A DNA stretch of 32,000 bases from Acaryochloris marina MBIC11017 (GCF_000018105.1 NC_009929.1:1-32000); one strand, 5' to 3'. Positions 566-17,118 are shown, numbered from the stretch's first letter. The notes: a model not told the origin generated them from the letters alone. Translations and numbers: made by a program.

Positions 566-853
566 ATGTCGATTTACGTTGGTAACCTTTCTTACGACGT
601 TACCCAAGATGAAATTCAGGCCGTGTTTGCTGAATATGGGGCCGTCTCTAACGTTCATGTTCCCAAAGACCGCGAGACTGGCAGAATGCGAGGATTTGCC
701 TTTGTTGAATTGGGCAACGATGCCGAAGAATCCAAGGCTATTGAAGAACTCGAAGGGGCTGAATGGATGGGGCGAACACTCAAAGTAAACAAGGCTAGAC
801 CTCGTGAGAACAATAGAGGTAATAACAACTTTAGTGGTCGAAACCGTTTTTAA
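566..853 (+). CDS. RRM-type RNA-binding protein (cyanobacterial Rbp family), 95 aa
   Basis: The internal ATG at 566 of ORF 449..853 gives MSIYVGNLSYDV... (RNP2) and RGFAFVEL (RNP1), the canonical RRM motifs. Length and the short Gly/Asn/Arg tail are typical of cyanobacterial Rbp proteins. A strong terminator follows. Confidence 0.9.
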   Translation: MSIYVGNLSYDVTQDEIQAVFAEYGAVSNVHVPKDRETGRMRGFAFVELGNDAEESKAIEELEGAEWMGRTLKVNKARPRENNRGNNNFSGRNRF

Positions 854-1330: not shown

Positions 1331-3244
1331 CTAAGCTTCTATCCATATCAAACAAGCGTGATGACGAGCGGGTTGTTTGCGGGAATGGGTAGCGGGATGA
1401 ATCGTCGTTAAAGTGTCTCCAGAAATTTTCACCTCTAGCCAAACATGGAATGGTGGTTTATTCTCCGCTTCTAGATATTTAAATGCTTCCCAGTTCCCTT
1501 CTCGATTGGAGGCAATGGTGATCACACTCGCCGCATCATGGATATGGCTAGACAGATACTGAATCACTTGCTGATGTAGCTCAAGTTCTTTGGACTGAAA
1601 GAGCAATAGGTAGAGATCCTGTACGGCTAATTGCTCAGCGTCTAACCGGTTCACAAGTTCACTGCGAAGGTGATCAACCCCCTGAGACTCAACCGCATAT
1701 TTCAGGAGTCGTGTGAATTCTTTCCCAGTGAGATTTGCTAAGTCTTCGGGGGTCTGAAGTTGCTCCTGGTAGACCTTTTGATGGGCTGCTTTGAAGAACT
1801 CCGAGGCCTGCTCTTTATGCTCATCCTTGACCTGGGCAATATGCTGTCCCAATTCCTCCAGCTCAGACTGGGTATAGGGTAGGTCTTGCTGCTTGAGGCG
1901 GGCTTTGACAATCCGATGGTTGATCAGGTCAGCGACTCTGCGAATCGGACTGGTGAAGTGGCAATAGGCAGGCAGGTTCAGGGCAAAATGCCCTATCAAG
2001 ACGGGACTATACACGGCCCGATTCATCCAACTGTGCAACCGTTGACGAATGGCTGCATTTGACCCTAACATCAACAACATTTGGTACATTGTTTCCCGAT
2101 CTGGGGCAATGGCTCTGGCGGTGTGATTCCGATACAGCGCTGGGATATCCTGATCGGCTAACCATTGAGCGACGGCGAGGTTCGCCAGGATCATAAATTC
2201 TTGAATGAGGATATGGCTTGGATGAAGTTTACCTTGGATAAGGCTGCCTTCTTCTGTGAGCCACTGGCCTTGAGCCGTCTGGGTCGCTCCAATTGAACCT
2301 GATGTCAGCCGATTTCGGTACAGATGGGAGGCCCATTGGTGAGCCATTTCCAGAGTGTTATGAAAAGGAGTAGATGATTTAGGCTGGGAGGCTTCAGCAT
2401 AGGTAAAGCGTTTGTGACTTACCAGCCAGGATTCAAAGATTTTGACGTCAACCATCTGGGCGTTCGGGTTGAGGGTAACCTGAACGGTAACGGTAGGTCG
2501 GGCTTCACCTTCCAGCAGGCTCAGCTTATTTTCGGACAGGGGTCTTGGCAGCATGGGTGCGTTCCCATTGCTGAAATAGCGTGTGACTGTGCGAGAGAGG
2601 GCTACCTTATCCAATATCGAGCCCATCTCCACGAGTTCGGAGACATCGGCAATATGTACGGAGAGGACTACCCCTGACTCAGTCGCTTCAATCCAGATAG
2701 CGTCATCCAGGTCTCGAGAAGTCGGTCCATCGATGGTGATGCCTTGAACTTGGGGACGTTCCCAGAGTTCATCAGCGAGGACAAGGCGCTTGGCTATTTT
2801 AATGACATCTGGGGAGAAACGGTTCTTGCTTTTGGGAGTCGTTTCAGTCTTTGCTGGTGGACTATCCTGAGTCAGTGGCTTAGGTTTCTCATCTTGCACC
2901 GCCGCTGTCGACTTTGCCTGTTCGATTGGTTTTTCCTGATCTAACGTTATGGGCTTTTTATGTTGAAGTACGCCTTCAGGCTTTGACTCCAGCTTTTGCG
3001 ATAAAGGGGGTTTCAGCGTTGTTCTTTCTTGCTGCAATGATTTCTGTTTGGCCTGCTTCTTGGAGTGCCTTAATGCAGCTTTTCGCTGGGCTATCTTGGA
3101 TGCTGTGGTCTTGGACTGGCCTGGGTCAAGCTGGGCTTCAAGTTTTTTAATTGCACTTTTGAGTACCTTGGCAGCAGTGGGGTTGCTGCATTGCTGGAGT
3201 TGAGAACGCAGTTGTGAAAGCTTTTCTAAAGTTGAAGAAGGCAT
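1331..3244 (-). CDS. RNase II/R-family (RNB domain) 3'-5' exoribonuclease with atypical N- and C-termini, module A
   Basis: RNB motif I ITIDGPTSRDLDDAIWIE and motif IV HFALNLPAYCHFTSPIRRVADLINHR are present. The N-terminal ~170 aa is coiled-coil plus K/Q/P-rich, with no recognisable cold-shock domains. The C-terminal ~70 aa (PPFHVWLEVKISGDTL...SRKQPARHHACLIWI) reads like a degenerate dsRBD (low confidence). Confidence 0.85.
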   Translation of the reverse strand: MPSSTLEKLSQLRSQLQQCSNPTAAKVLKSAIKKLEAQLDPGQSKTTASKIAQRKAALRHSKKQAKQKSLQQERTTLKPPLSQKLESKPEGVLQHKKPITLDQEKPIEQAKSTAAVQDEKPKPLTQDSPPAKTETTPKSKNRFSPDVIKIAKRLVLADELWERPQVQGITIDGPTSRDLDDAIWIEATESGVVLSVHIADVSELVEMGSILDKVALSRTVTRYFSNGNAPMLPRPLSENKLSLLEGEARPTVTVQVTLNPNAQMVDVKIFESWLVSHKRFTYAEASQPKSSTPFHNTLEMAHQWASHLYRNRLTSGSIGATQTAQGQWLTEEGSLIQGKLHPSHILIQEFMILANLAVAQWLADQDIPALYRNHTARAIAPDRETMYQMLLMLGSNAAIRQRLHSWMNRAVYSPVLIGHFALNLPAYCHFTSPIRRVADLINHRIVKARLKQQDLPYTQSELEELGQHIAQVKDEHKEQASEFFKAAHQKVYQEQLQTPEDLANLTGKEFTRLLKYAVESQGVDHLRSELVNRLDAEQLAVQDLYLLLFQSKELELHQQVIQYLSSHIHDAASVITIASNREGNWEAFKYLEAENKPPFHVWLEVKISGDTLTTIHPATHSRKQPARHHACLIWIEA

Positions 3245-3270
3245 GGGAGAGGAAAATCTCGCTAGGAGCA

Positions 3271-3297
3271 GACTTGCAGGTATTCTAATCTAGAGAA
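3271..3297. promoter_or_regulatory. Conserved 27-bp motif in the divergent promoter region of module A
   Basis: GACTTGCAGGTATTCTAATCTAGAGAA matches GACTTGCGGCCATTCTAGTGTAGAGAA at 10539-10565 at 22/27 positions (hand alignment). Both sit at the same relative position between the divergent genes. Confidence 0.4.
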
Positions 3298-3373
3298 GAA
3301 GGATTCCAGCAGAATCTAAGGGTCTGGCTATGACGAACCACTATCTAAGCCTAGCCCCATAATCAATGACATT

Positions 3374-3568
3374 ATGAACCACTGTGCTTTTCAGACCTCC
3401 CATCAAGCCAAAGATTTGCGGCATACCCAAGATGGTCAGGCCATCGCTGAATTTGTAGTCACTATTCCTCCATTACGAGAAGAAGATCCGCCCGAAAACC
3501 TCAAAGCAATTTACTGGGGTGAAAATGGAGAAACGCCCACCTTTCCCTACAACCTGGCGACCAACTGA
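3374..3568 (+). CDS. SSB-like OB-fold stub (64 aa), module A
   Basis: MNHCAFQ...LRHTQDGQAIAEFVV..PPLREEDPPENLKAIYWGENGE resembles the N-terminal half of bacterial/cyanobacterial SSB (LRYT..G.AVA.F.V ... LKVVGWG), then terminates. A paralog of similar length is at 10641..10832. Confidence 0.5.
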   Translation: MNHCAFQTSHQAKDLRHTQDGQAIAEFVVTIPPLREEDPPENLKAIYWGENGETPTFPYNLATN

Positions 3569-3922
3569 TTCTACAAGGGCAGCTCAAAATCACAAAAGTG
3601 ACACACTAGATGGGTGAAAAAGAATATGTTGAGCAACAGGCAAGTCTGATCGTAGAGAAGATTAACCGAATTCAACGTGCCAGTTAACGCAGCAATCTAT
3701 CGCAATCCTCAGTAATGCTATCTCAACAAGTGAAAGTGAAGCTTCGAGTAGCTCGGCCAATCTTGGAACCGTTGCTATTTACAAAGGGAATGATGATGAA
3801 ATCCTCCAGAAATGCCGAATGTAGCCCATTAATGATTAGATACAAAGGAAGTTAATTCTGGGAATGCTATACGTTAGCATTCTTAGTTTTGCTGAAATAA
3901 ATACACTGATCTACGACGAACT

Positions 3923-4714
3923 ATGGCCCCTGACAACAAATACTCCACAGTACTCCTTGAGTTAAAGACTCACTACCAGGAGACACTCGCTGAACTTGAA
4001 GCTCAAACGAGTCAACTCAAGACCAAAATCACGTCTCTGGATACGTTGATTGAAGATCCTTTGTTAGGTTCAGACATCCTTTCAATCCTTCAAGGTGAAG
4101 CAGATTCACTCACCTCACCAGAACCAGTTTCTAAAACTGCCGACACAGTAGAACTTAAAGCCAAGTCTAAGAAAGCTACTCCAAAAGCTGCTTCAAAGAA
4201 GAAGTCTACACCCCCTAAGAAGCCAGCTTCAACTGCAAAGACAAAGGAGAAAGTAAAACCGGAAGTTGACGCTGAAGCTACCCCAAAGAAAGCCGCTCAA
4301 AAAGCTTCGCCCTCATCCGGGAAGAGAAAATCCTCAACTTCCAAGAAAGCTGTATCTCAGGCAACAGCAAAGAAGAAAAGTCAGAAGAAAACAAGCAGCT
4401 CTTCATCCAGCGTTCTGACAATGAACAAGCCCTATGACCAGATGAAGAAAATTGATGCGATCACACAGATCATGCAGGAAAATCCTGGGAAAGTCATGCA
4501 TTACGATGATTTGATTGTGAGACTGTTTGGTGAACTAAGTAAAGATGATCAGAAAGCTGAGCGGGGTAGGATTAAAGCCGCCATGTACCAGGGGGCTAAA
4601 AATAATCTTTGGAAAAAAGCAAACGTACCAATGTGCTATATCTACGATCCAAGTCTAAAAGCTGAATCTAAAGCAACAACCTCAAAGACTCAAAAGTCTC
4701 GTAAAAAGACCTGA
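3923..4714 (+). CDS. Lys/Ala/Ser/Pro-rich (histone H1-like) protein with N-terminal coiled coil and C-terminal HARE-HTH-like domain
   Basis: The long KKA/KKS/PKK low-complexity core is seen directly. The C-terminal IDAITQIMQENPGKVMHYDDLIVRLFG...ERGRIKAAMYQGAKNNLWKKA resembles the HARE-HTH / RpoE-delta N-terminal domain pattern (from memory). Confidence 0.55.
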   Translation: MAPDNKYSTVLLELKTHYQETLAELEAQTSQLKTKITSLDTLIEDPLLGSDILSILQGEADSLTSPEPVSKTADTVELKAKSKKATPKAASKKKSTPPKKPASTAKTKEKVKPEVDAEATPKKAAQKASPSSGKRKSSTSKKAVSQATAKKKSQKKTSSSSSSVLTMNKPYDQMKKIDAITQIMQENPGKVMHYDDLIVRLFGELSKDDQKAERGRIKAAMYQGAKNNLWKKANVPMCYIYDPSLKAESKATTSKTQKSRKKT

Positions 4715-4746
4715 TGTCCGATCAGTAGAGTAAAGACGTTCAAGAT

Positions 4747-5028
4747 TCAAGCTGAAGCCATCATTCTTGAGATCAGGAATGATGGTGGAGCAAATAGAAA
4801 AATGCCTCTACCAATCTCCATTTGCTCTCCTGACAGCGCAAAAGTACTGCCAGCCAAGTAGTCTGTTAGCCTCTGAGCTAGCTTGGTTTCTAAAGCCGCC
4901 AAATTCACTAGGAGCATATCATCCGTTTTCATCGCGTTGATTGCTTCCTCAGCATCTTCAAATGACTTGGGGTGAAACACACGGATTTTATGGGGCGATA
5001 TTGCTTGAAAGGGAAGAAGATTGTTCAT
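4747..5028 (-). CDS. SepF-like (DUF552) domain protein, paralog A
   Basis: IRVFHPKSFEDAEEAINAMKTDDMLLVNLAALETKLAQRLTDYLAGSTFALSGEQMEIGRGIFLFAPPSF matches the SepF C-terminal domain pattern. The start at ATG 5028 (MNNLLPF) was chosen because GAGGAG lies ~9 nt upstream and paralog B starts MNNLVIF. The longest ORF extends to a GTG at 5229. Confidence 0.7.
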   Translation of the reverse strand: MNNLLPFQAISPHKIRVFHPKSFEDAEEAINAMKTDDMLLVNLAALETKLAQRLTDYLAGSTFALSGEQMEIGRGIFLFAPPSFLISRMMASA

Positions 5029-5273
5029 AAACCAGTGCTCCTCTGCGACCAAGTCCAGGCACATCCTCAGCGTTTCGTGAATACTCCAGGCAGTCTGTTG
5101 ATACATGCTCAAGCCTAGGATCTCACCTGATAGGTTACTCTCCATGACATCAGAGCCAGCGGAAAGTTCCAGCTCCACAGATTCTCTTGGAGTTCGCGGT
5201 TGACTGATCTGAAGGTTTTTTGAGGACACTGACTGAGGTAGTCCGTCCGGAATAGAGTTGAAAATTGAAGAAG

Positions 5274-6101
5274 TTATCTTTTTCGGGCAATGTGAAAGGC
5301 AGAAATGTTCAAGAGTTTGATGTGACCTGCAAAGTGATTGTCTATTTTCTTCTGCAATCCTACGAACAAGTCTTTCCTGCTTTTTTCATCTAACTCCAAG
5401 TATTGTGAAAAGGTACTCAACAGTGTCAAATATTCATCCACACTATATGAGGTCTCCCAAATAATCTGTTCGAAAACGATGCCTTCGAATTGATCTGAGG
5501 TAGCAACAATCTGTCCTAGTTCTCTCAATTCAGCCTCATGAGTTTCTCTGCCTTTGTAGTGAGACAGGGATGGAGCATGGATTTGATACACATCCTGTAA
5601 CACCTGATGGAACTCTCGATAAGGAATGGCTGGCACATTCCATAACAGTATGAGCACTCCATTATCCTGTAATGCATTGGCCACTTTAGGGTACGCAACT
5701 TCTGCCGGAATCCAATGAATCGAAGTTGCTGCTAAAACAGCGTTAAACGGCTTTGCTTCTGGTTTCCATTCCTCAAATGAGGTGTTTTTGATCTCGAGAT
5801 TTGGGTAGTGAGAACAATTTCTCCGAGCAATCTCGTAAAAGTCTGGGTTTGGCTCAAGACAGAGCATTGAAAAACCCAGGTTAGCAAACGAAACTGTTGC
5901 AGTTCCAGGGCCACAACCTATTTCAAGAATTCTCGACCCATTTTCAAGTTGAGTTAACTCGACAACTCGACTAATCAATGTATCAGGATAATGAGGTCGT
6001 GTTCTGTTGTAAGCCTCTGCTGCGGGAGAGTACCAAGTCTTTCTCTGTTTCAAGTCTTTGCTAGAGTACTGCTTGGTTGTTTGATCGTTATCTTTCACCA
6101 C
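5274..6101 (-). CDS. Class I SAM-dependent methyltransferase
   Basis: Motif I ILEIGCGPGTAT and a typical downstream acidic/hydrophobic pattern. GTG start, so the exact start is uncertain. Confidence 0.85.
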   Translation of the reverse strand: MVKDNDQTTKQYSSKDLKQRKTWYSPAAEAYNRTRPHYPDTLISRVVELTQLENGSRILEIGCGPGTATVSFANLGFSMLCLEPNPDFYEIARRNCSHYPNLEIKNTSFEEWKPEAKPFNAVLAATSIHWIPAEVAYPKVANALQDNGVLILLWNVPAIPYREFHQVLQDVYQIHAPSLSHYKGRETHEAELRELGQIVATSDQFEGIVFEQIIWETSYSVDEYLTLLSTFSQYLELDEKSRKDLFVGLQKKIDNHFAGHIKLLNISAFHIARKR

Positions 6102-6771: not shown

Positions 6772-6990
6772 TTAACCCCAACACTCCGCTACCCGCTCCC
6801 ACTCAAACTCCGCCTGAACCCTCTCCCAGATCCGCTTCATCTCCTTCTGTGGACGAAGCTCAATCACTTGTAAAATCTCAAAGTTCTCTTCAATTTCGAC
6901 GGCGCACTCAAATCAAACCCCCGGTGTAGCAAACGATTCCCTCACGAAAGGCTTCCCCGTTCTCTTCACCAAAACTATTATTGCCCTAAG
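6772..6990 (-). pseudogene. Remnant copy of the C-terminal domain of the 7940..8554 gene, with an in-frame TGA
   Basis: The minus-strand translation IIVLVKRTGKPFVRESFATPGV*FECAVEIEENFEILQVIELRPQKEMKRIWERV...CWG* aligns in frame with LITVAGTGKPFVRNTFATPEFCWECAVEIEENFEIGEVIELRPPETMERIGEMV...VWG*. The TGA at 6913-6915 replaces the Cys codon. The frame is closed upstream at 6991-6993. Confidence 0.6.
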
Positions 6991-7036: not shown

Positions 7037-7780
7037 CTAGTTAGGAGATTGTTCGCATTTCAGTGTATAACCTACCCCTCGAATCGTATGGATAAGTTCG
7101 GTTCCAACCTGATTGGCTTTGAGCTTATTCCGTAGGCGAGACACATGGACATCAACTACTCGCGAGTCAACGATGGTCCCATTACTATATCCCCACACTT
7201 TCTCTAACAACTCTTGACGAGACACTACTGCTCCAGGGGTACTTGCCAATAGTTCTAACAGACTAAATTCCATGTGGGTTAGGATGATACGTTCTTGACC
7301 TCTGAAGACCTTCCGCTTGTTGGTGTCAATCCGGAGTGAACCGATGTTTAGCACTCCGGTAACTCGATAATTAAAAGGCTTTAGAGAACCCATTCGGCGT
7401 ATGATGCATCGCACTCGTGATTCTAATTCCTTAGGTGAAAAGGGCTTGACCATGTAATCATCTGCACCCATTTCTAAGCCAGTAACCCGATCTCCTACCT
7501 CAGAAAGTGCCGTCAGCATAATGATCGGAACTCTCGAGGTCTTGCGGATGGCCCGACAGACACCATACCCATCCAGTCTGGGCATCATAACATCTAAAAC
7601 AATCAAATCAGGGTGCTGACGATCAAAGATTTCTAATGCTTCTACGCCGTCAGCAGCAGTGAAGACGTGATAGCCCATCATGGATAGCCTAGTGTCTAAA
7701 ATTCGTCGAATCGGCCCTTCATCATCAACTACCAAGATAGAATGCTGCTTATTGCTCTGATTATTCATGAATTCAGGCAT
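7037..7780 (-). CDS. OmpR-family response regulator (RpaB-like), orphan
   Basis: Receiver domain ILVVDDE...DLIVLDVMMPRLDGYGVC...VPIIMLTA...GADDYMVKPFSPKELESR, plus a winged-helix C-terminus (VVDVHVSRLRNKL...IHTIRGVGY). No histidine kinase is adjacent. Confidence 0.95.
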   Translation of the reverse strand: MPEFMNNQSNKQHSILVVDDEGPIRRILDTRLSMMGYHVFTAADGVEALEIFDRQHPDLIVLDVMMPRLDGYGVCRAIRKTSRVPIIMLTALSEVGDRVTGLEMGADDYMVKPFSPKELESRVRCIIRRMGSLKPFNYRVTGVLNIGSLRIDTNKRKVFRGQERIILTHMEFSLLELLASTPGAVVSRQELLEKVWGYSNGTIVDSRVVDVHVSRLRNKLKANQVGTELIHTIRGVGYTLKCEQSPN

Positions 7781-7939
7781 CTTTGGCTACGCTTTAGTTC
7801 AACGTAGCATTTATACCTAAGTAATAATGCTTAAGACGCTTGATAGAAATGATTCTTATGATTAGGTCATTTTCGAGAGAAATTGCCTAGTCTACTGCTT
7901 CGGCATTTGCCCAAAACTCAACTCACTCCCAAACTCAAC

Positions 7940-8554
7940 TCACCCCCAAACCCTCGTCACTCTCTCCCGCTCCAACCACACTCCGACCATCTCCCCAATC
8001 CGCTCCATCGTCTCCGGTGGCCTTAGCTCAATCACTTCCCCAATCTCAAAGTTCTCCTCAATTTCAACAGCGCACTCCCAACAGAACTCCGGCGTAGCAA
8101 ACGTATTCCTCACGAAAGGCTTCCCCGTCCCTGCCACCGTAATCAAGTACTCCTCAGACTCATTCTTGGAAACAGCCAGATACTCCAGCTCCCCTCGCGT
8201 CCTGGTCTGCTCAACCAAATTCTTCTGTTTCAGCTCCAGATTCTTGAATCGCCGCTCCAGCTCTGCCGACACTCTAGGGGTTCTCGGTTGACTAGTCTGG
8301 GCAGCTTCTGAGGTCTGGGTCTTGGGAGAGTACTCAGGTTTGGCTGATCGGTGAGTTCGCCTAGAACTCCGGCGTAGTCCTCCCAGCTCCTCATGCCCTT
8401 GTTCTAGCTTGGCTGGCCGGGTTCCTTCCGGTGTTTTCTTAGGAAATGCTGTCCTACTAACCAGTTTGGGCAAGGAAGGGACGGACTTAGGTAGTTGTGG
8501 GATGATGGTCTTGGGTACAAGCTTGGGGTTGAGGGCAACGATTGGGGGAGTCAT
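7940..8554 (-). CDS. Hypothetical protein (Pro/Lys-rich N-terminus, conserved C-terminal domain)
   Basis: 204-aa ORF downstream of SepF-like B. Its C-terminal ~75 aa is duplicated as the remnant at 6772..6990. Its SQPRTPRVSAELE segment recurs upstream of SepF-like A. Confidence 0.55.
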   Translation of the reverse strand: MTPPIVALNPKLVPKTIIPQLPKSVPSLPKLVSRTAFPKKTPEGTRPAKLEQGHEELGGLRRSSRRTHRSAKPEYSPKTQTSEAAQTSQPRTPRVSAELERRFKNLELKQKNLVEQTRTRGELEYLAVSKNESEEYLITVAGTGKPFVRNTFATPEFCWECAVEIEENFEIGEVIELRPPETMERIGEMVGVWLERERVTRVWG

Positions 8555-8581
8555 TGGGGAATCCTCAAATGCACTAAAGTC

Positions 8582-8860
8582 TCAATACTTGGATTGTTTC
8601 ACAATTGGAAAAGTTTGAGGAGCAAACAGATAAACACCATTTCCTATTTCTGTATATTCACCACATAAAGAGTTAGTACAACCTGCAAGATAATCACTTA
8701 TTCTCTGGGCCGATTTTGGAGATAGATTTTCTAAATTGACGAGTAGCAGTTGTCCGTTCTTCAGGCAATGTGCCGCTTCTTTAGCCTCCCTAAAAGAACT
8801 CGGATTCGACAAATATATTTCAGATGAAGATTGTCCTGGGAATATGACTAAATTGTTCAC
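8582..8860 (-). CDS. SepF-like (DUF552) domain protein, paralog B
   Basis: IYLSNPSSFREAKEAAHCLKNGQLLLVNLENLSPKSAQRISDYLAGCTNSLCGEYTEIGNGVYLFAPQTF fits the SepF domain. GTG start (a stop lies 3 codons upstream). Confidence 0.75.
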   Translation of the reverse strand: MNNLVIFPGQSSSEIYLSNPSSFREAKEAAHCLKNGQLLLVNLENLSPKSAQRISDYLAGCTNSLCGEYTEIGNGVYLFAPQTFPIVKQSKY

Positions 8861-8972
8861 AGAATGATGCTATTACTTGCTCAGAGGTATGTCTTAATTC
8901 TTCCATGAAGGAATTTGCTTTTCTTTAATCGAAAAATAAGTTTAATGTTCACATCACTTCAAAATCGCATCC

Positions 8973-9446
8973 TTAGCCTTTAGAGGGTGAAATGTGACAT
9001 AGACCTTCCTCTGCTCTCTTCAACAACATCTCCGCAGCCCCCATCTTCGCTTTCTTCTTCGATGCTCCCTAGCCTACTCCCTGTAATCCCATCGACTGCA
9101 CTAAACAACGAAACCCTTCTGATATCTCTGAAAACTCGTACCTGGGCAACGATATTTGCTGTTTCTGGCAAAGCTCTTGCAATTGTCCAATCGGATTCTC
9201 CACCTGTTCATCAACCTGGCTGTTGGGTTGATCAGGGGAGGTCTCAGGTTGCTCGGCTTCTTCCTGGCGTGGATGTAAGATATGTACCTGCTGTTCGGCC
9301 TTGCGGATAGCTCGGTTCCTAGCCCGTTCAAGGAGCCTGATCAAAGCATCTTCTGGATCATCATTGGGGTACAAATAGTCGAGAAATCCAAGCTGCTCTT
9401 CGGTTAGTAGAACGTTTAGGCTGAGGGAAGGTCGAGATTCAATCAT
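8973..9446 (-). pseudogene. dsRBD protein of module B, interrupted by an in-frame TAG (9069-9071)
   Basis: The ORF ends ...NPIGQLQELCQKQQISLPRYEFSEISEGFRCLVQSMGLQGVG-TAG. The same frame continues GASKKKAKMGAAEMLLKRAEEGLCHISPSKG-TAA, which completes a textbook dsRBD (G.G.G.SKK.AK..AA..L). The ATG overlaps the upstream stop (ATGA at 9443-9446). Confidence 0.65.
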
Positions 9447-10519
9447 ACCTGGAGAGTGGAAGACTCCAATTTAGAAAGGACTTGGTCGATGATGTTCTGA
9501 TCTTTGATTTCTGGATCAGTGATTTCCTGGTCAGTGGATTCAGTAGCGTTACTCTTAGGCGTTGAACGTTCTCCAACAGCCACAACCTTGACGGTAACGC
9601 CATCTCTATGGCAGATGAACTCATAGAGCTTTCCATCCTTGAGCGTCTCCAGGCAGTCCTCACTCACGAGCGGGGAATGCTGGCGGATATGAATCTCTGG
9701 GTCGCGCTCCTGATCCCGCTGTATCAAAACCCTTTGCTTATCTGCTCTCCATACTCCGATCAATACCCAGTTCTCTGTCTTTGCTGATGCCCGTTGCGAG
9801 GTACCTGTTAACTGCAAAGATGTAATCTGACCATTCATGATATTGGGATAACCAAACACCATGATTGGTTTGTCTAAAACTGACTTGACTTTCTTAAAGC
9901 TCTTCTTCGATAGGAAGAGTTTGATGGGTTGTCCATCAACTTCCACAAAATACAGAGACTTTGTTCTCCCATCGTCAAACTCCTTCTCTCGTACTCGAAT
10001 AATTCCGGGAATTCGGCACCAAGCCCGATGAGTGCCATTTCCAGGGAGCAGTGGAGGTTTCTCGGAAAGTTCACCTGATTTTGACTTTGATGTTGTCTTT
10101 TCTTGTTTTTGATTTTTTGAATTTGAATTCTTACTGTTAGGAGTGTCTACAGTCTTAACATGCGGCTTTTCCTGGGCTGGATTTGGGAGCTTCTTGCTCT
10201 GAGAGATTACTTCAGGTTTTGGCTCTATTTTGTTGAGTGAAGGGGGTTTCAACGTTGTTCTTTGTTTTTGTGATGCCTTCTGCCTAGATTTCCTCTCTGA
10301 TTTCTTGTGTGCAGCTTTCCGCTGAGCTACCTTGAAAGAATTCGTGTTAGTTGTCTTTAACTGGTCTATCTTGGATAACTCGATCTGGTCCTGGCCTAAG
10401 TTGAGCTGGGCTTCAAGCTTTGCAATCGTACTCTTGAGTAGCTTGGCAGCAGTGGGGTTAATACAATCCTGAAGCTGCCTTTTAAGCTGGTTCAGCTTAT
10501 CGATAGATGCAGAGGGCAT
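9443..10519 (-). CDS. Module B protein sharing the module A N-terminus but carrying a different (unknown, beta-rich) C-terminal domain
   Basis: MPSASIDKLNQLKRQLQDCINPTAAKLLKSTIAKLEAQL...RTTLKPP aligns with MPSSTLEKLSQLRSQLQQCSNPTAAKVLKSAIKKLEAQL...RTTLKPP of the RNB protein. There is an 18-nt identity CTTGGCAGCAGTGGGGTT (3167-3184 / 10442-10459). No RNB motifs are present. GGGAGG SD upstream. Confidence 0.75.
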   Translation of the reverse strand: MPSASIDKLNQLKRQLQDCINPTAAKLLKSTIAKLEAQLNLGQDQIELSKIDQLKTTNTNSFKVAQRKAAHKKSERKSRQKASQKQRTTLKPPSLNKIEPKPEVISQSKKLPNPAQEKPHVKTVDTPNSKNSNSKNQKQEKTTSKSKSGELSEKPPLLPGNGTHRAWCRIPGIIRVREKEFDDGRTKSLYFVEVDGQPIKLFLSKKSFKKVKSVLDKPIMVFGYPNIMNGQITSLQLTGTSQRASAKTENWVLIGVWRADKQRVLIQRDQERDPEIHIRQHSPLVSEDCLETLKDGKLYEFICHRDGVTVKVVAVGERSTPKSNATESTDQEITDPEIKDQNIIDQVLSKLESSTLQV

Positions 10520-10538
10520 GAGAACCTCCCTGGGATCG

Positions 10539-10565
10539 GACTTGCGGCCATTCTAGTGTAGAGAA
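10539..10565. promoter_or_regulatory. Conserved 27-bp motif in the divergent promoter region of module B
   Basis: GACTTGCGGCCATTCTAGTGTAGAGAA, 22/27 identical to 3271-3297. Confidence 0.4.
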
Positions 10566-10640
10566 TTGGGTTTTGGGGAAAGTAAAAGTTTTTTCCACGA
10601 ATCGTTACTGGCCTTTAATCTAGCCTTAAGATCAGAAATT

Positions 10641-10832
10641 ATGAATCACTTCGCTATACAAGGAATACTCCTAGAGAGATCCCTGCGATATACCCAGGAA
10701 AGACGTGCGATCGCTGAGTTTGTTGTTGAAATTAACCCTCTGAGGGAAGAAGACCCCAAGGAAAATCTCAAGGCCATCTATTGGGGAGAGAATGGGGAGA
10801 AAGCACACAATGCATTGCATACCTTAGGATAA
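10641..10832 (+). CDS. SSB-like OB-fold stub (63 aa), module B
   Basis: The ATG at 10641 gives MNHFAIQG...LRYTQERRAIAEFVVEINPLREEDPKENLKAIYWGENGE, a paralog of 3374..3568 with the same start context (ATTATGAAYCAC) and near-identical length. Confidence 0.5.
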   Translation: MNHFAIQGILLERSLRYTQERRAIAEFVVEINPLREEDPKENLKAIYWGENGEKAHNALHTLG

Positions 10833-10965
10833 ACAAACGGTACACATTTTTTATTTATTACGTATTTGTTCTATTTTTAAGGTTTCTCTAAAACTTTTTT
10901 CTCTTTATATTATTAATATTTAGGCCATGATAGACACAATATCATGACATCAAATAGGCTTCAGC

Positions 10966-11001
10966 AGAGAACTATTATTAAGTATTCAATAATAGTTCTC
11001 T
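10966..11001. repeat. Perfect 14-bp-stem hairpin at the left edge of the AT-rich island
   Basis: AGAGAACTATTATT (10966-10979) / AATAATAGTTCTCT (10988-11001), 8-nt loop. It lies immediately 3' of the minus-strand GNAT-like gene and may be its terminator, but there is no clear U-tract. Confidence 0.4.
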
Positions 11002-11013
11002 ATTATAATTGCA

Positions 11014-11559
11014 CTATTTTCTCCACAAAATATTTACGATATTAGTAAGCTCTCCTTTTGTTCCAGATAAAAATAAACCACAGGCTTTCAAACCTAGGGC
11101 ACGATGAAAGTTCTCAGATGCATGATTTCTTAGAGGACTCACAGCTGTTGCTGTAAGTGCAGTTAACCCATCAAAATTTAGAAATACGTCATCGTATAAT
11201 GCTTTTGCATATCCCATTCGCATGAATTCAGCTTTAACGGCTATTTTTGCAATCCAATAGCAATTATCTACATTTGGGTATAATTGCTCTGAATCAAACC
11301 AAATGAGAGATTCGTTATTAATTAGTAATCTACTTAAGATCTGATGCTTTGGAGGAACAACCATTACAAATCCTACTAGATTAGAATCTTGAGATAAAAC
11401 TTTTATATAGCCTGTATCATGTAAATCTTCATAAACCTTAAATGAGGCTCCGGGTAGAAAAAAACCTTTTGCATTAGCATCTTCAGAATTAGAAGGAAAA
11501 GACTTTTCTAATTCATAGCAAAAATTCAGTTCTTCAAATGATGGTGTGTAGATTTTCAT
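11014..11559 (-). CDS. GNAT-like acetyltransferase-fold protein (weak)
   Basis: Start taken at ATG 11559 (MKIYTPSFEEL...). The segment IAKIAVKAEFMRMGYAKALYDDVF resembles the GNAT motif A region. The longer ORF (to 11718) overlaps the upstream GNAT gene and was rejected. Confidence 0.5.
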   Translation of the reverse strand: MKIYTPSFEELNFCYELEKSFPSNSEDANAKGFFLPGASFKVYEDLHDTGYIKVLSQDSNLVGFVMVVPPKHQILSRLLINNESLIWFDSEQLYPNVDNCYWIAKIAVKAEFMRMGYAKALYDDVFLNFDGLTALTATAVSPLRNHASENFHRALGLKACGLFLSGTKGELTNIVNILWRK

Positions 11560-12232
11560 TATTACTATGGCTAGTCTTAAAAAATTCTCTAACCATCTTA
11601 ACTGACAATCCGGCATTGCCATTAATAAATTGGTTAGATGCCTCTCTCCATCCCATTTTCTTATAAAAACCTGAAGATTGAACTCTACAATTACACCAAA
11701 TATGTCTAAGTTGCTCATCTTTTTCTAAATCGGAAATCATAAAGTCAATTATCTTTCGACCTATTCCTTTAGATCTCCATTCAGGTGCTGTAGCCATTGC
11801 TCTTAGCTGCCAAGCTAGGAATCCATTCCAATATGACTGAATTAAAGAAACACAGCAAATATTATTTTCTTGTCTATCAAAAGCACCATAATGTCTACTT
11901 TGATAATCGTGATCTTCATTGAACATAACTTCAGTGATTGGATACCCATTTCTTAATACTTGATGCCTTAATTTAAGAATTGAGCCTACATCAGTTTTTT
12001 TGAAGTCAATTTCATTAGCTTGATGTTTTATTATTAGCCTATCATCTTTAACTAGCTGCTCGAATGTAAATGGTTCTTTTTTATATGTAAGGCGACTAAT
12101 TCCTGTTATTCTTGATAAAGTTTCAATATAGTCTTCTTGTCGAATAAGCTGATGGATTACACATCTTAGGATAGTGGGATTTTCTAGTATTGATAACCAA
12201 GCATCTCTAATCAATATTGATAAAGCCTGCAT
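11534..12232 (-). CDS. GNAT N-acetyltransferase domain protein; probable C-terminal part of an IS-split gene
   Basis: WQLRAMATAPEWRSKGIGRKIIDFMI...CNCRVQSSGFYKKMGW is a GNAT acetyl-CoA-binding motif (R/Q-x-x-G-x-G/A). The ATG at 12230-12232 abuts the IS target duplication. Confidence 0.7.
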   Translation of the reverse strand: MQALSILIRDAWLSILENPTILRCVIHQLIRQEDYIETLSRITGISRLTYKKEPFTFEQLVKDDRLIIKHQANEIDFKKTDVGSILKLRHQVLRNGYPITEVMFNEDHDYQSRHYGAFDRQENNICCVSLIQSYWNGFLAWQLRAMATAPEWRSKGIGRKIIDFMISDLEKDEQLRHIWCNCRVQSSGFYKKMGWREASNQFINGNAGLSVKMVREFFKTSHSNNENLHTII

Positions 12233-12234
12233 AA

Positions 12235-13626
12235 CCCTCTTTTATCACTTTAGACAGAGAGAAAATCAGGATGCTTGAGCAATTTCCTCACCAGTGGACA
12301 GCAAAATGCCTCCATCTTTGATGTGAGTTGCTCAAACCCCTTTTTCAAAGCACGGCTGGGAAAGACTTCTAACCAGCGCTTTAGAAGATTCCAACTGATT
12401 AACGGTTGAATGATCAAGCGCACATTATTGAGCAGATTCTTCCACCCGTTTTGGTTATCCCACCAAGGATGCTGCGCAAAGTGTTGATGTGCCACTGGAC
12501 AAGAGTCATTGAAGACATCAGCGAACAAACTCACCATCAAGAAAGCGCTCATCACTATCTCCCACCACTTTTCAATTTGTTCGTAGTGCGTCATGCGAAA
12601 ATCAGCCCAACCCAAGGTATCTTTAGACTGTTTGAGACCATACTCAATCCAAGTTCTGAAGCCATAGCAATCCCCAATTTCATCCAGCTTGATCTCGGGT
12701 GCCGCTGCCATGACATAAGAGGTTGAGTTCTCTGGTAGCGTTTGGGGGTCCGTGGTTAATAGCCAATAGCGCTTCTGGTGGTGTCGCTGGCCATAAATGA
12801 TCTCTTGCCTGTAACGAGTTTCAGTGGTGCCATTGCTGAAGGTTCGTTCAAATGACTGCCACGGTTCGGCAAAGACTGCTTGTTCTGCGGGTAACCACAC
12901 CGCATGATTGCTACGAATCGCTAGGATATAGGGCAGCTTTAACTCCTCTAAGACATTCACAAAGTTTGTTTGAGCTTCCCCATACAAGCTGTCAGCCAGG
13001 ACGAGCTCAAAGCAAAAGCCCATCCCTTGCAACTGTCGGATCATTCCAGCAGCAATTTGGGGTTTGCTGAGATACTCATCCTCCTCTTTAAGACGTTCTC
13101 GGGGTTTGTACACTTCAAAGGACAAAGGCAAAATCATCCCTTGAAACAGCCCGTAGGCAGTGACTGCGACGATGCCATTCTCTTTCTTGCCCACATTGCC
13201 GATATACTGCCGTTTCACATAGTCGGTACTCTTGCCTTTTTTGCAATCGCCCGTCTCATCGATCAATAGAATTAACCTGCGCCCATCCAGTATTTTCAAG
13301 ATGATGTCCAATCTCTTGTCAGACAAATGTGACGCTACCCAAGGTGATTCACTCAGAAAATGATGCAGGCTTTGATGGTTCTCCAAGCCCACTGCTCTTG
13401 CAATGGCGGGCAATGATTTACGTTTGATATCACTAATCATCCCCAGATGGAGATGCTTGAAGGCTTCATAACTGCGGACTTGGGGAAATAACTCTGCAAA
13501 TAGTTGGCAGTACTCATCAACAAAGCCAATGGTTGGTTCTGGACTTCTTGAAGCTGACATCACTCATTAGAAAAATAGAAACTGAGAATAGTCTATTTTT
13601 TATCTGTCTAAAGTGATAAAAGAGGG
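12235..13626 (-). mobile_element. IS701-family insertion sequence (1392 bp) with 23-bp perfect terminal IRs and a 4-bp ATAA target-site duplication
   Basis: CCCTCTTTTATCACTTTAGACAG (12235-12257) is the exact reverse complement of CTGTCTAAAGTGATAAAAGAGGG (13604-13626). It is flanked by ATAA (12231-12234) and ATAA (13627-13630). GC content is clearly higher than the surrounding AT-rich DNA. Confidence 0.85.
12250..13563 (-). CDS. IS701-family DDE transposase
   Basis: RKSLPAIARAVGLENHQSLHHFLSESPW ... LLIDETGDCKKGKSTDYVKRQYIGNVGKKENGIVAV... matches the characteristic N-terminal pattern of IS701-family transposases (from memory). It fills the IS. Confidence 0.9.
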   Translation of the reverse strand: MMSASRSPEPTIGFVDEYCQLFAELFPQVRSYEAFKHLHLGMISDIKRKSLPAIARAVGLENHQSLHHFLSESPWVASHLSDKRLDIILKILDGRRLILLIDETGDCKKGKSTDYVKRQYIGNVGKKENGIVAVTAYGLFQGMILPLSFEVYKPRERLKEEDEYLSKPQIAAGMIRQLQGMGFCFELVLADSLYGEAQTNFVNVLEELKLPYILAIRSNHAVWLPAEQAVFAEPWQSFERTFSNGTTETRYRQEIIYGQRHHQKRYWLLTTDPQTLPENSTSYVMAAAPEIKLDEIGDCYGFRTWIEYGLKQSKDTLGWADFRMTHYEQIEKWWEIVMSAFLMVSLFADVFNDSCPVAHQHFAQHPWWDNQNGWKNLLNNVRLIIQPLISWNLLKRWLEVFPSRALKKGFEQLTSKMEAFCCPLVRKLLKHPDFLSV

Positions 13627-15005
13627 ATAATGTCAGATTTGACAATTATGGAACTACGTAAAAACAAGAATACAGGTTTAATTTGAGCAATAGGATTATT
13701 AAGCAAATTACAAGAGTTGAACTTAAGATTGAAATTATAATGTGGGAATCCAATAATCGTTCTTATATTGCTATCACCATTACTCAAAGCATGCGTAACT
13801 TCATCTGGCTCCATTTCTGTTGTAGTGCTTTTTGTTAGAAGCTTAGAATTAATTAGATTCTCATATATAAAAAATTCAGTTGATGGTACTTCTTTCATTA
13901 AAAGGTATTCACCGTCCAAACTTCGTTCATTTAATTCTATATTTGAAGATAAAATCCCATGTGTCATATTTGGCATCATAAATGATGAAGTATATCTTCC
14001 TGTTTTTTCCCTTAGAAGAACACTCGCGGTAGCAAGGGTTAGAGTAAAACCATCAACTTGCCTTGAAAAATTATCGAATATTGCATTCTCAACAATTTCA
14101 ACCGAGTGAGGATGATGGTAATCAAAGGTTATATTAATATTTTTTTCTCTTAAATAAGTTAATATGGCAAGTGTTCCTGCATGAGCAGGAGAGACTACTA
14201 AATGTATTGGATTTTCGTTGATCACACGGGTTGCTTGTTCAAGGTTCCAACCTAAACGAGTCGTTCTATTAAGCTTTTTCTCTTGATCGCATACCAAAGA
14301 TTCCTTTGATTTAGTGAAAGCAAGAAAAGATGAATCATTTTCTGCATCTTTGATTCGTTTACTATATGCCGCTCTGCTAAAAATATCTGTGATATTTAGC
14401 ATTAATATAATTTCTTCAAAATAAATTTTCTCAAGCCAAATCAAATTTTCTTCAATATTGAATGGAATGGGAAATTTATTAAACCTAGTATCAATATTAA
14501 ATTTTTTCAGATGACTTATTTTTTTGATAGATGAATTTGCATAATTTTCAGGTATATTATTAAGTTGATTATCTCGTTTGTTTGATATGCTAGCCTTTTT
14601 GCTTCTATTTGATTTATTCTTTTCCCAAAGAGAGTTCACTTCATTTAGATTTATGTCTGTTTTCTTTGACCAAAGCTCTAGAGAAAAGTGCCAATCTTGA
14701 GAACCTTGCTTATTTACACGATGATCTTGAAGGATACCCAAAAAATCTTTTAGGCAATGTAGTGCATCTCTAATATCTGTTTTTTGCAAAGGGTTTCGTA
14801 AATCGTAATGGTCACACAGATATTTGAGATTATTGATTGTAGTTTTTACAATCAGTGTTTTTTCCTGAAGCCCATCTTCTTGCCAACTATATTGGATGTT
14901 TATTTTTTGAGTATGTTCAAATTCATCATTAGCGAATCTAAGTATGCATTCTAAAATTCGTAATACTCTTGTTTTTTGCGCAGGTCCATAGGAAATTCGG
15001 GGCAT
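13608..15005 (-). CDS. N-terminal part of an IS-split large ORF (unknown function); the last 6 codons and the stop are IS-derived
   Basis: 465-aa ORF in very AT-rich DNA. The C-terminal ...KSDI-IPLLSL* runs into the target duplication and IS terminus. The N-terminus (SYGPAQKTRVLRILECILRFANDE...QGSQDWHFSLELW) resembles a domain I recall at the N-termini of many cyanobacterial multidomain proteins (unverified). Confidence 0.65.
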   Translation of the reverse strand: MPRISYGPAQKTRVLRILECILRFANDEFEHTQKINIQYSWQEDGLQEKTLIVKTTINNLKYLCDHYDLRNPLQKTDIRDALHCLKDFLGILQDHRVNKQGSQDWHFSLELWSKKTDINLNEVNSLWEKNKSNRSKKASISNKRDNQLNNIPENYANSSIKKISHLKKFNIDTRFNKFPIPFNIEENLIWLEKIYFEEIILMLNITDIFSRAAYSKRIKDAENDSSFLAFTKSKESLVCDQEKKLNRTTRLGWNLEQATRVINENPIHLVVSPAHAGTLAILTYLREKNINITFDYHHPHSVEIVENAIFDNFSRQVDGFTLTLATASVLLREKTGRYTSSFMMPNMTHGILSSNIELNERSLDGEYLLMKEVPSTEFFIYENLINSKLLTKSTTTEMEPDEVTHALSNGDSNIRTIIGFPHYNFNLKFNSCNLLNNPIAQIKPVFLFLRSSIIVKSDIIPLLSL

Positions 15006-15293
15006 AAGCTAAACATCCTATAAAGTTTTGGGAAACCCTAGGGTATTTGACTTACCCCAAGGTACCTTAAAACCTACTGTCCTTGATTTTTCGTTATCCT
15101 AGCCTGAAGGTTGCAATGGGGCATATCCTCAATGGGATAGTAATGCACAGTTGTTAAGAAGATTTAGTACAAAGTATTGCTCCTGATGGTAAATGGCAGT
15201 TCCAACCAGGCTAACCAAGCTTAGGTACAGAAACTAACTATTCTGTCATCCAAGTCTTCAAGCAGCTGTAACTTTATATTTCTAGTATCGACG

Positions 15294-15617
15294 ATGTCTA
15301 TTCACAGATATGATTTGCAACTCACTGAAAACCTTTCAATTTCCAAAATAAAAATAGATCAGGAGATTCAAGTACTATCTAAATCGAATGATGCTGTAAT
15401 ATCAGAGTTCGCAGAAGCTATGCGAAAAGGGGCTGACTTTCCACCTATCACAGTTTTCTACGATGGTTCTGAATATTGGCTGGCTGACGGATTTAGTCGT
15501 ATAAAAGCCAAAGAAGCAAACGGAGACAGTTATATACTAGCTGAGGTGGAGTTTGGCTCCCGTCATGAAGCGAAACTTTATGCTGTTGTAACTAACACGA
15601 ATCAAAAATCGAATTAG
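15294..15617 (+). CDS. Truncated ParB N-terminal-domain paralog
   Basis: AEAMRKGADFPPITVFYDGSEYWLADGFSRIKAKEANGDSYILAEV aligns with AQDMKQGATFPPVIVYFDGEEYWLADGFHRVRAKEAIGETSVTAEV of 16057..17118. The DGxHR His is replaced by Ser, and the ORF stops after ~107 aa. Confidence 0.55.
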   Translation: MSIHRYDLQLTENLSISKIKIDQEIQVLSKSNDAVISEFAEAMRKGADFPPITVFYDGSEYWLADGFSRIKAKEANGDSYILAEVEFGSRHEAKLYAVVTNTNQKSN

Positions 15618-15717
15618 CATAGATCAACAGAAAATCAAATAAGCCCTTTTAAATAAATCAGCTAGTCGTAAGGGACTGTGGAAGTAGCCGCAAAACCGTT
15701 TTACACTCCGTCTTGAA

Positions 15718-15731
15718 CTAGTTCGAACTAG
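15718..15731. repeat. Perfect 14-bp palindrome CTAGTTCGAACTAG (candidate parS-like site), followed by a 9-bp-stem hairpin at 15747-15769
   Basis: Read directly. The hairpin is TCTCTGGGG / CCCCAGAGA with a 5-nt loop. Both lie between the two ParB-like genes. A one-base-shorter variant CTAGTCGAACT occurs at 17244-17254. Confidence 0.3.
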
Positions 15732-16056
15732 AACAGCGCCCAGATTTCTCTGGGGAAGTTCCCCAGAGACAAAACTCCTTTACTTGATAGTCACTCAACA
15801 AATTGGTACTCCATAAATTGAATGTCCGTACATGTAGTGAAGAGTAATATCAGTATCAATTCTCTTAACTAAGCTATCTCTTTGATAGTGCTCATCTAAC
15901 TACAAGGAACAAAGATAATGAAACTCAAAGATCAGATAACCAAGATCTTTACTTAACTCAAGTTAACAAAAACTATAGCGATTCTCTGAATTGCTTGTTG
16001 CTTAAAGGCTGAGATGTTTTCATAGCGGTATTGTTGTTGTCACCCAATAACCCTGA

Positions 16057-17118
16057 ATGCCGCCCAAGAAAGCCTCTAGAGAATTACATGAAGTTTCTAC
16101 CCAGTCAGTTGAGATAGCTGAAATTCGCATGGATGGAGGCACGCAACCTCGTGCCAAATTATTTGAAGAAGTTGTTGACGATTATGCTCAAGATATGAAA
16201 CAAGGGGCAACTTTCCCTCCTGTGATAGTTTACTTCGACGGAGAAGAATACTGGCTAGCCGATGGCTTCCACCGGGTCAGAGCTAAGGAAGCTATAGGGG
16301 AAACATCAGTTACTGCTGAAGTCCATCTTGGAACTCAACGTGATGCTGTTTTATATGCTGTTGGCGCTAACGCTGCACATGGCTTAAGGCGGACAAATGC
16401 TGATAAGCGCCGTGCCGTTATTAGACTACTGCGTGACTTTGAGTGGCGTGAATGGAGTGATAGGGAAATTGCAAGGCGTTGTGGGGTTGATCATAAAACG
16501 GTAGGAAGTTTGCGGAAGGATATATATCCAACTGATGATCAATCTAAAGAGTTTCGCAAAGGCGCAGATGGGAGAATAACTAATGTCAGCAATATAGGCA
16601 AGTCTACTAAGACGATTAATGAATCAAACAAACGACAAAGGAGAAAAAAACCAGCAGCTACTCTCAACACTATTGTTGAGCAATCTCAAAAGGTTCAAAT
16701 AGACGATATTTGGAGGCTAGGTAAATCCCATCTTTTGTTTTGTGGAGACTCAGGGTCAGCCAAATTTCAGAAATTGTTACCAATAGAAATTTCATTACTG
16801 TTATTTTTCCCACGCAAAGACAAACCTTGGTTACCAGAGAAGCCAACAAATGTGCACAATACTTTACTATTCCATACCTCATATGGAGAAGACCTACACT
16901 TAGAGACATTAAGAGGAATCATTGAGAATTGCTTATCGGGCACTACTGACGCAAACGATCCTATTGTAATGATCAACCTTATTGATCCTTCACTATTCAT
17001 TTTGATAGATGAACTAGAATGCTCGTGCTTTTGTGCTGAGCCTGATCCTCAACGATGCACAGACGCACTAACAGTCTGGACAGCCATCAACCAGACAGTG
17101 AAAAAAATATCCACCTAA
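16057..17118 (+). CDS. ParB/Srx N-terminal-domain protein with a degenerate methyltransferase-like C-terminal remnant
   Basis: ParB-N pattern (IRMDGGTQPR, YWLADGFHRVRA, AHGLRRTNADKRRAV). Then IWRLGKSHLLFCGDS resembles the junction of ParB-fused DNA methyltransferases (LG.HRLLCGDS), but no DPPY/NPPY motif follows (SLLLFFPRK in its place). Confidence 0.75.
   Translation: MPPKKASRELHEVSTQSVEIAEIRMDGGTQPRAKLFEEVVDDYAQDMKQGATFPPVIVYFDGEEYWLADGFHRVRAKEAIGETSVTAEVHLGTQRDAVLYAVGANAAHGLRRTNADKRRAVIRLLRDFEWREWSDREIARRCGVDHKTVGSLRKDIYPTDDQSKEFRKGADGRITNVSNIGKSTKTINESNKRQRRKKPAATLNTIVEQSQKVQIDDIWRLGKSHLLFCGDSGSAKFQKLLPIEISLLLFFPRKDKPWLPEKPTNVHNTLLFHTSYGEDLHLETLRGIIENCLSGTTDANDPIVMINLIDPSLFILIDELECSCFCAEPDPQRCTDALTVWTAINQTVKKIST

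Follow-up and report, generated by a model that had tools for sequence, protein, structure and literature searches.

A predicted tandem OB-fold domain and an RNB exoribonuclease domain alternate behind a shared leader in an Acaryochloris plasmid cassette

A stretch of 32,000 nucleotides from Acaryochloris marina MBIC11017 (GCF_000018105.1, NC_009929.1:1-32000; hereafter the window) encodes two proteins that begin alike and end differently. In one, encoded at a locus that we call module A (1331-3244, minus strand; 637 aa), a leader is fused to an RNB exoribonuclease domain. The other is encoded by an ORF at 9443-10519 (minus strand), which a preliminary description of the sequence read as a domain swap: the same N-terminus and a low-complexity linker, followed in place of the nuclease by a beta-rich domain of ~200 aa, perhaps OB-like or a beta-barrel. 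What is this second domain, and what could a protein built on the leader of a nuclease do on a plasmid?

A GNGxH domain with a predicted tandem OB fold

The ORF is intact in the window, exactly where it had been placed, and encodes a 358-aa protein composed of a leader, a linker, a predicted tandem OB domain and an acidic tail. The leader (aa 1-45; 10385-10519, minus strand) is a predicted helical hairpin, with helices at aa 4-17 and from aa 22 onward and a mean pLDDT of 83-93 over aa 11-40, and is common to the RNB proteins and all Acaryochloris OB paralogues. The low-complexity, basic K/S/N/Q linker (aa 46-154; 10058-10384, minus strand) has pLDDT values below 50 at aa 49-67, 89-100 and 102-161 and includes a conserved basic segment at aa 71-90, with block means of 57-69. 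The first barrel (aa ~160-243; 9791-10042, minus strand) comprises the GNGxH motif, strands 1-3, a helix, and strands 4-5 with an invariant YP; the second (aa ~248-320; 9560-9778, minus strand) carries invariant W..G.W, Q-R(D/S), Y and R residues. The domain is beta-rich in the model, as first described, but its size was overestimated: the fold takes up ~166 aa (aa 155-320), and the last 38 residues form an acidic tail (aa 321-358; 9446-9559, minus strand).

Positions 7900-10900 of the window are 97% identical to plasmid pREC3 of A. marina MBIC10699 and 96% identical to pREC2. The acidic tail is confined to this window/pREC2/pREC3 clade (plus a fragment, P0001) and is missing from other paralogues. 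It ends in ...ESSTLQV, without the D-D-D-I-P-F-type tip of SSBs, and tblastn and blastn searches of the paralogous loci found no source for it.

To sequence libraries the protein is nearly silent: nothing meaningful was matched in Pfam, NCBIfam, PHROGs or PADLOC, and two profiles of the domain matched no PDB sequence at E≤10. When the C-terminal 203 aa were used in a word-indexed search, 15 proteins were returned; those with a named source come from Acaryochloris/Acaryochloridaceae, several of them plasmid-borne, and the remainder are metagenome sequences. All 13 full-length Acaryochloris homologues in this close group share one layout – an MPS...KLxQLxxQLxxC leader, a low-complexity linker and a conserved LLPGNGTHRAWCRIPGIIR... 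domain – so that the domain does occur fused to the same leader elsewhere. An exhaustive HMM search with the domain profile against 1.84 billion cluster representatives returned 23 proteins, 20 of them distant relatives (E 8e-11 to 8e-4) that mostly matched over nearly the whole domain.

In a 27-sequence alignment, members are 21-59% identical to the target and share invariant N-G-x-H, Y-P, W, G, Q and Y, with G, E, W, R and R near-invariant. This motif set spans about 165 aa, and the window protein has every invariant column (N161, G162 and H164; Y224 and P225; W251, G255 and W257; Q267 and R268; Y299; R305). Every relative with a traceable source is cyanobacterial, including plasmids and phage-like contigs. 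All family members are named 'hypothetical protein' and have no Pfam domain; the one exception is a subgroup with a weak Ada-type zinc ribbon at the N-terminus. That subgroup, which joins an Ada-like zinc ribbon and a K/E-rich linker to the domain, is found on chromosomes of Geminocystis, Cyanobacterium and related MAGs; neither in these two genera nor in Gomphosphaeria and one more context do the chromosomal homologues have conserved neighbours. With a four-sequence sub-alignment as query, 9 loci were recovered from cyanobacterial genomes and none from IMG/VR.

Three distant members lie on phage-like contigs. The first, P0032 (at L004 5727-7640; metagenome contig ERZ27315841 k119_96743), has the zinc-ribbon N-terminus, and its gene overlaps an upstream VRR-NUC nuclease gene and abuts or overlaps a downstream DEDD/RNase_T exonuclease gene, with translational coupling between the two. 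The same contig carries a Sipho_Gp157 gene and an SMC-like ATPase. The second member sits beside ribonucleotide reductase and a T5orf172 gene, and the third adjoins a tail-collar gene. Another distant member is found beside a Tn3 transposase and an integrase.

A full-length AlphaFold model has a confident N-terminal helical hairpin, a mostly disordered linker, and an OB-like barrel whose second half is poorly resolved. When the domain alone was modelled with AF2 on the 27-sequence alignment (pLDDT 93, pTM 0.84), two consecutive five-stranded barrels were obtained, each with a helix between strands 3 and 4. The top Foldseek match of this model in the PDB is the Deinococcus radiodurans SSB 3udg (E 1.4e-4, probability 1.0, TMq 0.54). 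Further PDB matches include Thermus thermophilus SSB, HIN-200, Teb1-AB, LEF-3, PriB, RPA, and the OB domains of DnaE/PolC and ligases; in the viral library BFVD, LEF-3, phage SSBs and ligase OB domains were matched. A tandem OB fold at aa ~160-320 is predicted with high confidence, which bears out the guess of an OB-like domain or beta-barrel. Filed on its motifs and its predicted structure, the GNGxH tandem-OB domain is best regarded as a new, previously unnamed OB-fold domain family.

Like the two-OB SSBs of the Deinococcus-Thermus group (3udg, 2cwa), the target is predicted to have two consecutive OB barrels in one chain, and the structural alignment spans both. Unlike them, it has no PF00436 match at E≤1, shares only ~9-11% identity in that alignment, lacks the DDDIPF-type tip, has a shorter second barrel, and carries an N-terminal leader and basic linker. 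The target thus resembles a two-OB SSB in predicted fold and departs from SSBs in sequence. Tandem OB topology is likewise shared with HIN-200, Teb1-AB, baculovirus LEF-3 and RPA, but these superpose at TM-scores of 0.24-0.32 and are unrelated in sequence and from other taxa.

The invariant residues raise the alternative that the barrels form an enzyme, for example a nuclease or phosphoesterase, with an active site made of the His of GNGxH, the Glu of ExW, Gln-Arg-Asp, Tyr and Arg. Polar and charged residues are unusually invariant for sequences that are 21-59% identical, and the domain can stand in the place of a nuclease domain and is operon-coupled to nucleases. We nevertheless consider an enzymatic role very improbable: staphylococcal-nuclease-like and other catalytic OB proteins were absent from the best 50 Foldseek matches, neither a family model nor a PDB sequence was matched, and the Asp of QRD is replaced by Ser, Gln or Thr in many members.

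In well-diverged paralogue pairs, dN/dS is 0.08-0.26 for the OB domain and 0.03-0.29 for the leader, with a looser linker; the ratios indicate that the OB domain family is under purifying selection. Judging from these values, the 15 close homologues and a GGAGG Shine-Dalgarno sequence 6-7 nt 5' of the ATG, the target ORF is a real gene.

Two effector domains behind one leader

The swap itself is evident from both protein and DNA comparisons. Residues 1-119 of the target are 50% identical to the module A RNB protein (BLASTP, E 2e-28), and BLASTP found no match between the two beyond aa 119. At the DNA level, homology with module A begins in the divergent SSB-like gene, covers the intergenic region and the leader, and stops at about codon 119 (about window position 10163). 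Pfam detects RNB (PF00773) in module A at E 7e-70 and no domain of any kind in the target at E≤1; NCBIfam likewise detects no RNB in the target.

These comparisons uphold the swap and the absence of an RNB domain as first described. The competing suggestion, that the C-terminal domain is a degraded RNB domain, is ruled out by the sequence, which has no match, and by the predicted tandem OB fold. Among the best 50 Foldseek matches there were no CSD or S1 chains of RNase II, RNase R or Rrp44, which argues for a tandem OB domain from a family without an existing model. The relationship to RNase II/R (RNB; PF00773, TIGR02063) is therefore confined to the N-terminal ~119 aa and the upstream DNA that the target has in common with the window's plasmid RNB protein; the target differs in its all-beta predicted fold, as against the alpha/beta fold of RNB, and has no CSD or S1 Pfam match. 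A fused dsRBD at the C-terminus of the module A protein was also considered and found no support in BLASTP or Pfam.

Leader relatives were surveyed by tblastn against plasmids. The exchange may have run in either direction: the leader is joined to OB more often than to RNB, and RNB fills the usual OB slot in module A. The leader comes in two flavours: one, with NETAALLLKR, belongs to the common ~275-aa OB proteins, and the other, with NPTAAKLLKS and a conserved basic stretch (KIAQRKAAL...TTLKPP), to the RNB proteins. The window protein, P0004 and P0013 carry the RNB-type leader, and in the window protein the RNB-type conserved segment (KVAQRKAA...QRTTLKPPSL) lies inside the linker at ~aa 63-95 (10235-10333). 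A leader profile matched nothing among PDB sequences at E≤10 and recovered only two fragments from a set of 5.8 billion proteins, the query being too short for the word index.

Sharing a leader with a ribonuclease suggests a second alternative, in which the OB protein is an RNA-specific partner of the RNB nuclease. It would lend the nuclease single-stranded RNA binding in trans, or shield 3' ends as its competitor, and the shared leader would join the two proteins or bring both to one RNP with the RRM and dsRBD proteins described below. The CSD and S1 domains that serve as anchors in RNase II/R are missing from the plasmid RNB proteins: module A passes straight from the linker into RNB at aa ~169, and Pfam and NCBIfam found no cold-shock or S1 domain there. 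Six of ~10 plasmid records contain both leader-OB and leader-RNB types. Against this alternative, the nearest structures bind single-stranded DNA and the CSD and S1 chains of RNase II, RNase R and Rrp44 are missing from the best 50 Foldseek matches. The RNB genes of pMB02 and S15 unnamed43 lie away from the cassette (RNB paralogues outside it are 779 aa long), and the distant family members occur in DNA-metabolism contexts. We hold this alternative to be doubtful, while keeping it as a live rival.

Between pMB01 and pMB02 (L017/L016, OB genes 4686-5522), dS is 0.12-0.25 in the leader and linker and ~2 in the OB domain. From the sequences, this mosaic is best explained if plasmids sharing a cell underwent gene conversion over the 5' part. 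Such conversion would also supply a mechanism for effector swapping.

A recurring plasmid cassette and its neighbouring genes

To place the swap in context, we took a census of 12 plasmid and metagenome loci by tblastn, together with their annotations. A recurring cassette was present at at least 8 plasmid loci: a divergent SSB-like gene, the leader-OB gene, a convergent RRM gene and, further on, a dsRBD gene. In most copies a ~120-bp spacer separates the SSB-like gene from the OB gene. The convergent RRM gene lies ~50 nt downstream of the OB gene, and the dsRBD gene usually ~0.9-1.4 kb past the OB stop on the same strand. ParB genes are found ~4-6 kb from the cassette. Module A follows the same plan, with RRM at 569-853 (plus strand), leader-RNB at 1331-3244 (minus strand) and the SSB-like gene at 3374-3684 (plus strand); flanked in this way by RRM and SSB-like genes, its RNB domain occupies the slot held by OB elsewhere. 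Retention of the convergent RRM gene in at least 8 loci, with a dsRBD gene near or coupled, favours the RNA-partner alternative considered above.

The SSB-like neighbour is ~105 aa long and passes the Pfam threshold for SSB (PF00436). Like the target it has an OB fold, and it is co-inherited and transcribed divergently from the same ~120-bp region, but it is a single barrel where the target has two, and hhalign of the tandem-OB profile against it indicated no relation (probability 0.2%). The copy beside the target (10641-10832, plus strand) is cut after ~60 of its ~105 codons, where a low-GC insertion begins. The copy in module A matches as two overlapping tblastn pieces and is apparently frameshifted; with one cut by an insertion and the other apparently frameshifted, both SSB-like copies in the window look damaged. 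The low-GC block (~10830-15100; 32-39% GC against ~45-47% around it) contains two GNAT-like ORFs (11014-12232), an IS4-type transposase (12250-13563) and a 465-aa ORF without a family match (13608-15005).

The dsRBD gene downstream of the target (8973-9446, minus strand) was the basis for an early suggestion of a complex. The observation behind it was accurate, as the target TGA (9443-9445) and the dsRBD ATG (9444-9446) overlap in an ATGA at 9443-9446. The proposed translational coupling, and the complex thought probable from it, were not borne out in that form. The ATGA junction occurs only in the window and the pREC2 and pREC3 loci, which at 96-97% identity are recent copies of one locus and so amount to one observation; at at least 8 other paralogous loci the gene next after OB is the convergent RRM gene, not dsRBD. 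Moreover, the window dsRBD gene has a premature TAG (9069-9071) where pREC2 and pREC3 have GAG, which shortens the protein to 125 aa from 157 aa and removes the KKKAK helix. The intact pREC3 protein passes PF00035 (25.5 bits against a cutoff of 23), whereas the window copy gives only a faint DND1_DSRM match (E 0.059) and lacks part of the full alpha-beta-beta-beta-alpha motif. With a nonsense codon, a coupling seen at a single locus and a cut SSB-like partner, the case for an OB-dsRBD complex at the window locus is weak. Gene linkage of OB and dsRBD nevertheless recurs across plasmids: near-full-length dsRBD genes lie ~0.9-1.4 kb past the OB stop at L018, L021, L024 and L030, and L016 has a 48-aa remnant only. 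The ~50-aa N-terminus of the intact dsRBD protein resembles a ribbon-helix-helix by eye, with no Pfam support.

A block of ~45 nt before the leader ATG (TAGAAT..C.GCAAGT..G..CC.AG.GAG) is conserved as well. At the target (10520-10563, minus strand) it comprises a -10-like TAGAAT (10550-10555) and a ~30-nt 5' UTR with the GGAGG sequence, and it has a counterpart in module A (3245-3300, minus strand). Across 8 cassette copies TAGAAT and much of the block do not vary, even when the other upstream sequence differs, and the leader's synonymous sites are less well conserved than this block. The block may be a promoter and 5' UTR, or an autoregulatory site. A promoter/terminator scan gave nothing above shuffled expectation, an inverted repeat 5' of the ATG is weak or absent, and an Rfam scan of the window found no family at gathering score.

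Damage to both partner genes in the window, together with an R-to-W change at the invariant QRD of the pREC3 orthologue (L001 11416-12492), suggests that the window/pREC2/pREC3 clade may be decaying. In the strongest form of this view, the window gene would be left over from a duplicated cassette and would no longer have a function. Other copies are broken, too: that of S15 unnamed43 is split into two ORFs and that of S15 unnamed13 is truncated (L030 4654-5489; L029 4686-5393). Between the window and pREC2 the linker dN/dS is 1.4, from few changes. Yet the target ORF is intact, with all invariant residues, the Shine-Dalgarno sequence and the promoter block, and its changes relative to pREC2 are concentrated in the linker (~14 substitutions and a 6-aa insertion) as against 4 in the OB domain and tail. 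A functionless remnant therefore strikes us as quite improbable.

From one Acaryochloris plasmid to the next, the cassette is also accompanied by plasmid-borne paralogues of SepF, of an RpaB-type response regulator and of a 204-aa protein without a family match. In the window these are SepF at 4747-5229 and 8582-8860, RpaB at 7037-7780, and the 204-aa hypothetical protein at 7940-8554 with a fragment at 6775-6978. The long SepF (160 aa) and the 204-aa protein have a SQPRTPR..ELE motif in common.

Candidate ligands and roles on plasmids

OB barrels are characteristic of single-stranded DNA- or RNA-binding proteins. The best explanation for the leader-linker-effector architecture and the effector swap documented above is that the leader-tethered tandem OB protein is a non-catalytic single-stranded nucleic-acid binder, one of the effectors exchanged behind the leader, with a lean towards plasmid replication or maintenance; we give this reading a probability of roughly 55%. 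The tandem OB domain (aa 155-320) would bind single-stranded nucleic acid without catalysis, a putative activity that we infer from the model, and the disordered basic linker would tether it to the ~45-aa helical-hairpin leader. By pure inference, the leader could be a docking or oligomerisation element for alternative effectors, tandem OB or RNB exonuclease, on Acaryochloris plasmids. The effectors would be exchanged when leader and linker sequences recombine or undergo gene conversion. The OB protein would work alongside the co-inherited small binders (SSB-like, RRM and dsRBD) near the ParB/Rep backbone, and may coat or hold single-stranded tails, the class of substrate for the 3'-5' exonucleases found in its place or coupled to it.

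For the ligand we lean towards single-stranded DNA or 3' single-stranded tails, because of the structural neighbours of the model, the SSB-like partner, the proximity of ParB/Rep genes and the phage DNA-metabolism contexts; associations with RNB, RRM and dsRBD keep an RNA role alive. Several observations count against a single-strand binder in plasmid replication or maintenance. An OB fold is compatible with DNA or RNA, the best TM-score is only ~0.5, and those of HIN-200, Teb1-AB and LEF-3 are lower still. Both partner genes are broken in the window, chromosomal homologues lack conserved neighbours, and the SSB-like protein is unrelated to the target by hhalign.

A more ambitious reading treats the whole cassette as a self-contained, recombining nucleic-acid kit beside ParB/Rep, made up of the SSB-like protein, the leader-tethered tandem OB protein or RNB exonuclease, the RRM protein and the protein that combines an RHH-like part with the dsRBD. 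The leader would be the docking element by which exchangeable effectors reach one site, plausibly an R-loop, an RNA-primed replication intermediate or an antisense-RNA copy-control duplex, and swapping binder for nuclease would tune copy number or incompatibility. We think this unlikely; if true, the swap would adjust copy number or incompatibility among the many plasmids of one cell.

How cyanobacterial megaplasmids replicate and remain compatible is poorly understood, and the cassette is a testable candidate for accessory replication or RNA-control functions. Preferring the single-strand binder, we regard the locus as a clear case in nature of effectors being exchanged behind a common leader, where one copy of a conserved plasmid cassette has a binder and another an exonuclease. 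Its interest lies in the modular swap and the new domain family; the mechanism itself would not be surprising or amount to a new kind of biology.

Acaryochloris plasmids are reported to carry multiple CyRepA/CyRepX replication genes (bioRxiv 10.1101/2023.10.09.561360), which sets the cassette among replication functions that are still poorly understood. In the window, a 1174-aa ORF without an NCBIfam match (17788-21312, plus strand) adjoins two ParB-like genes (15294-17118, plus strand) and could be a CyRep-type replication protein as in cyanobacterial megaplasmids.
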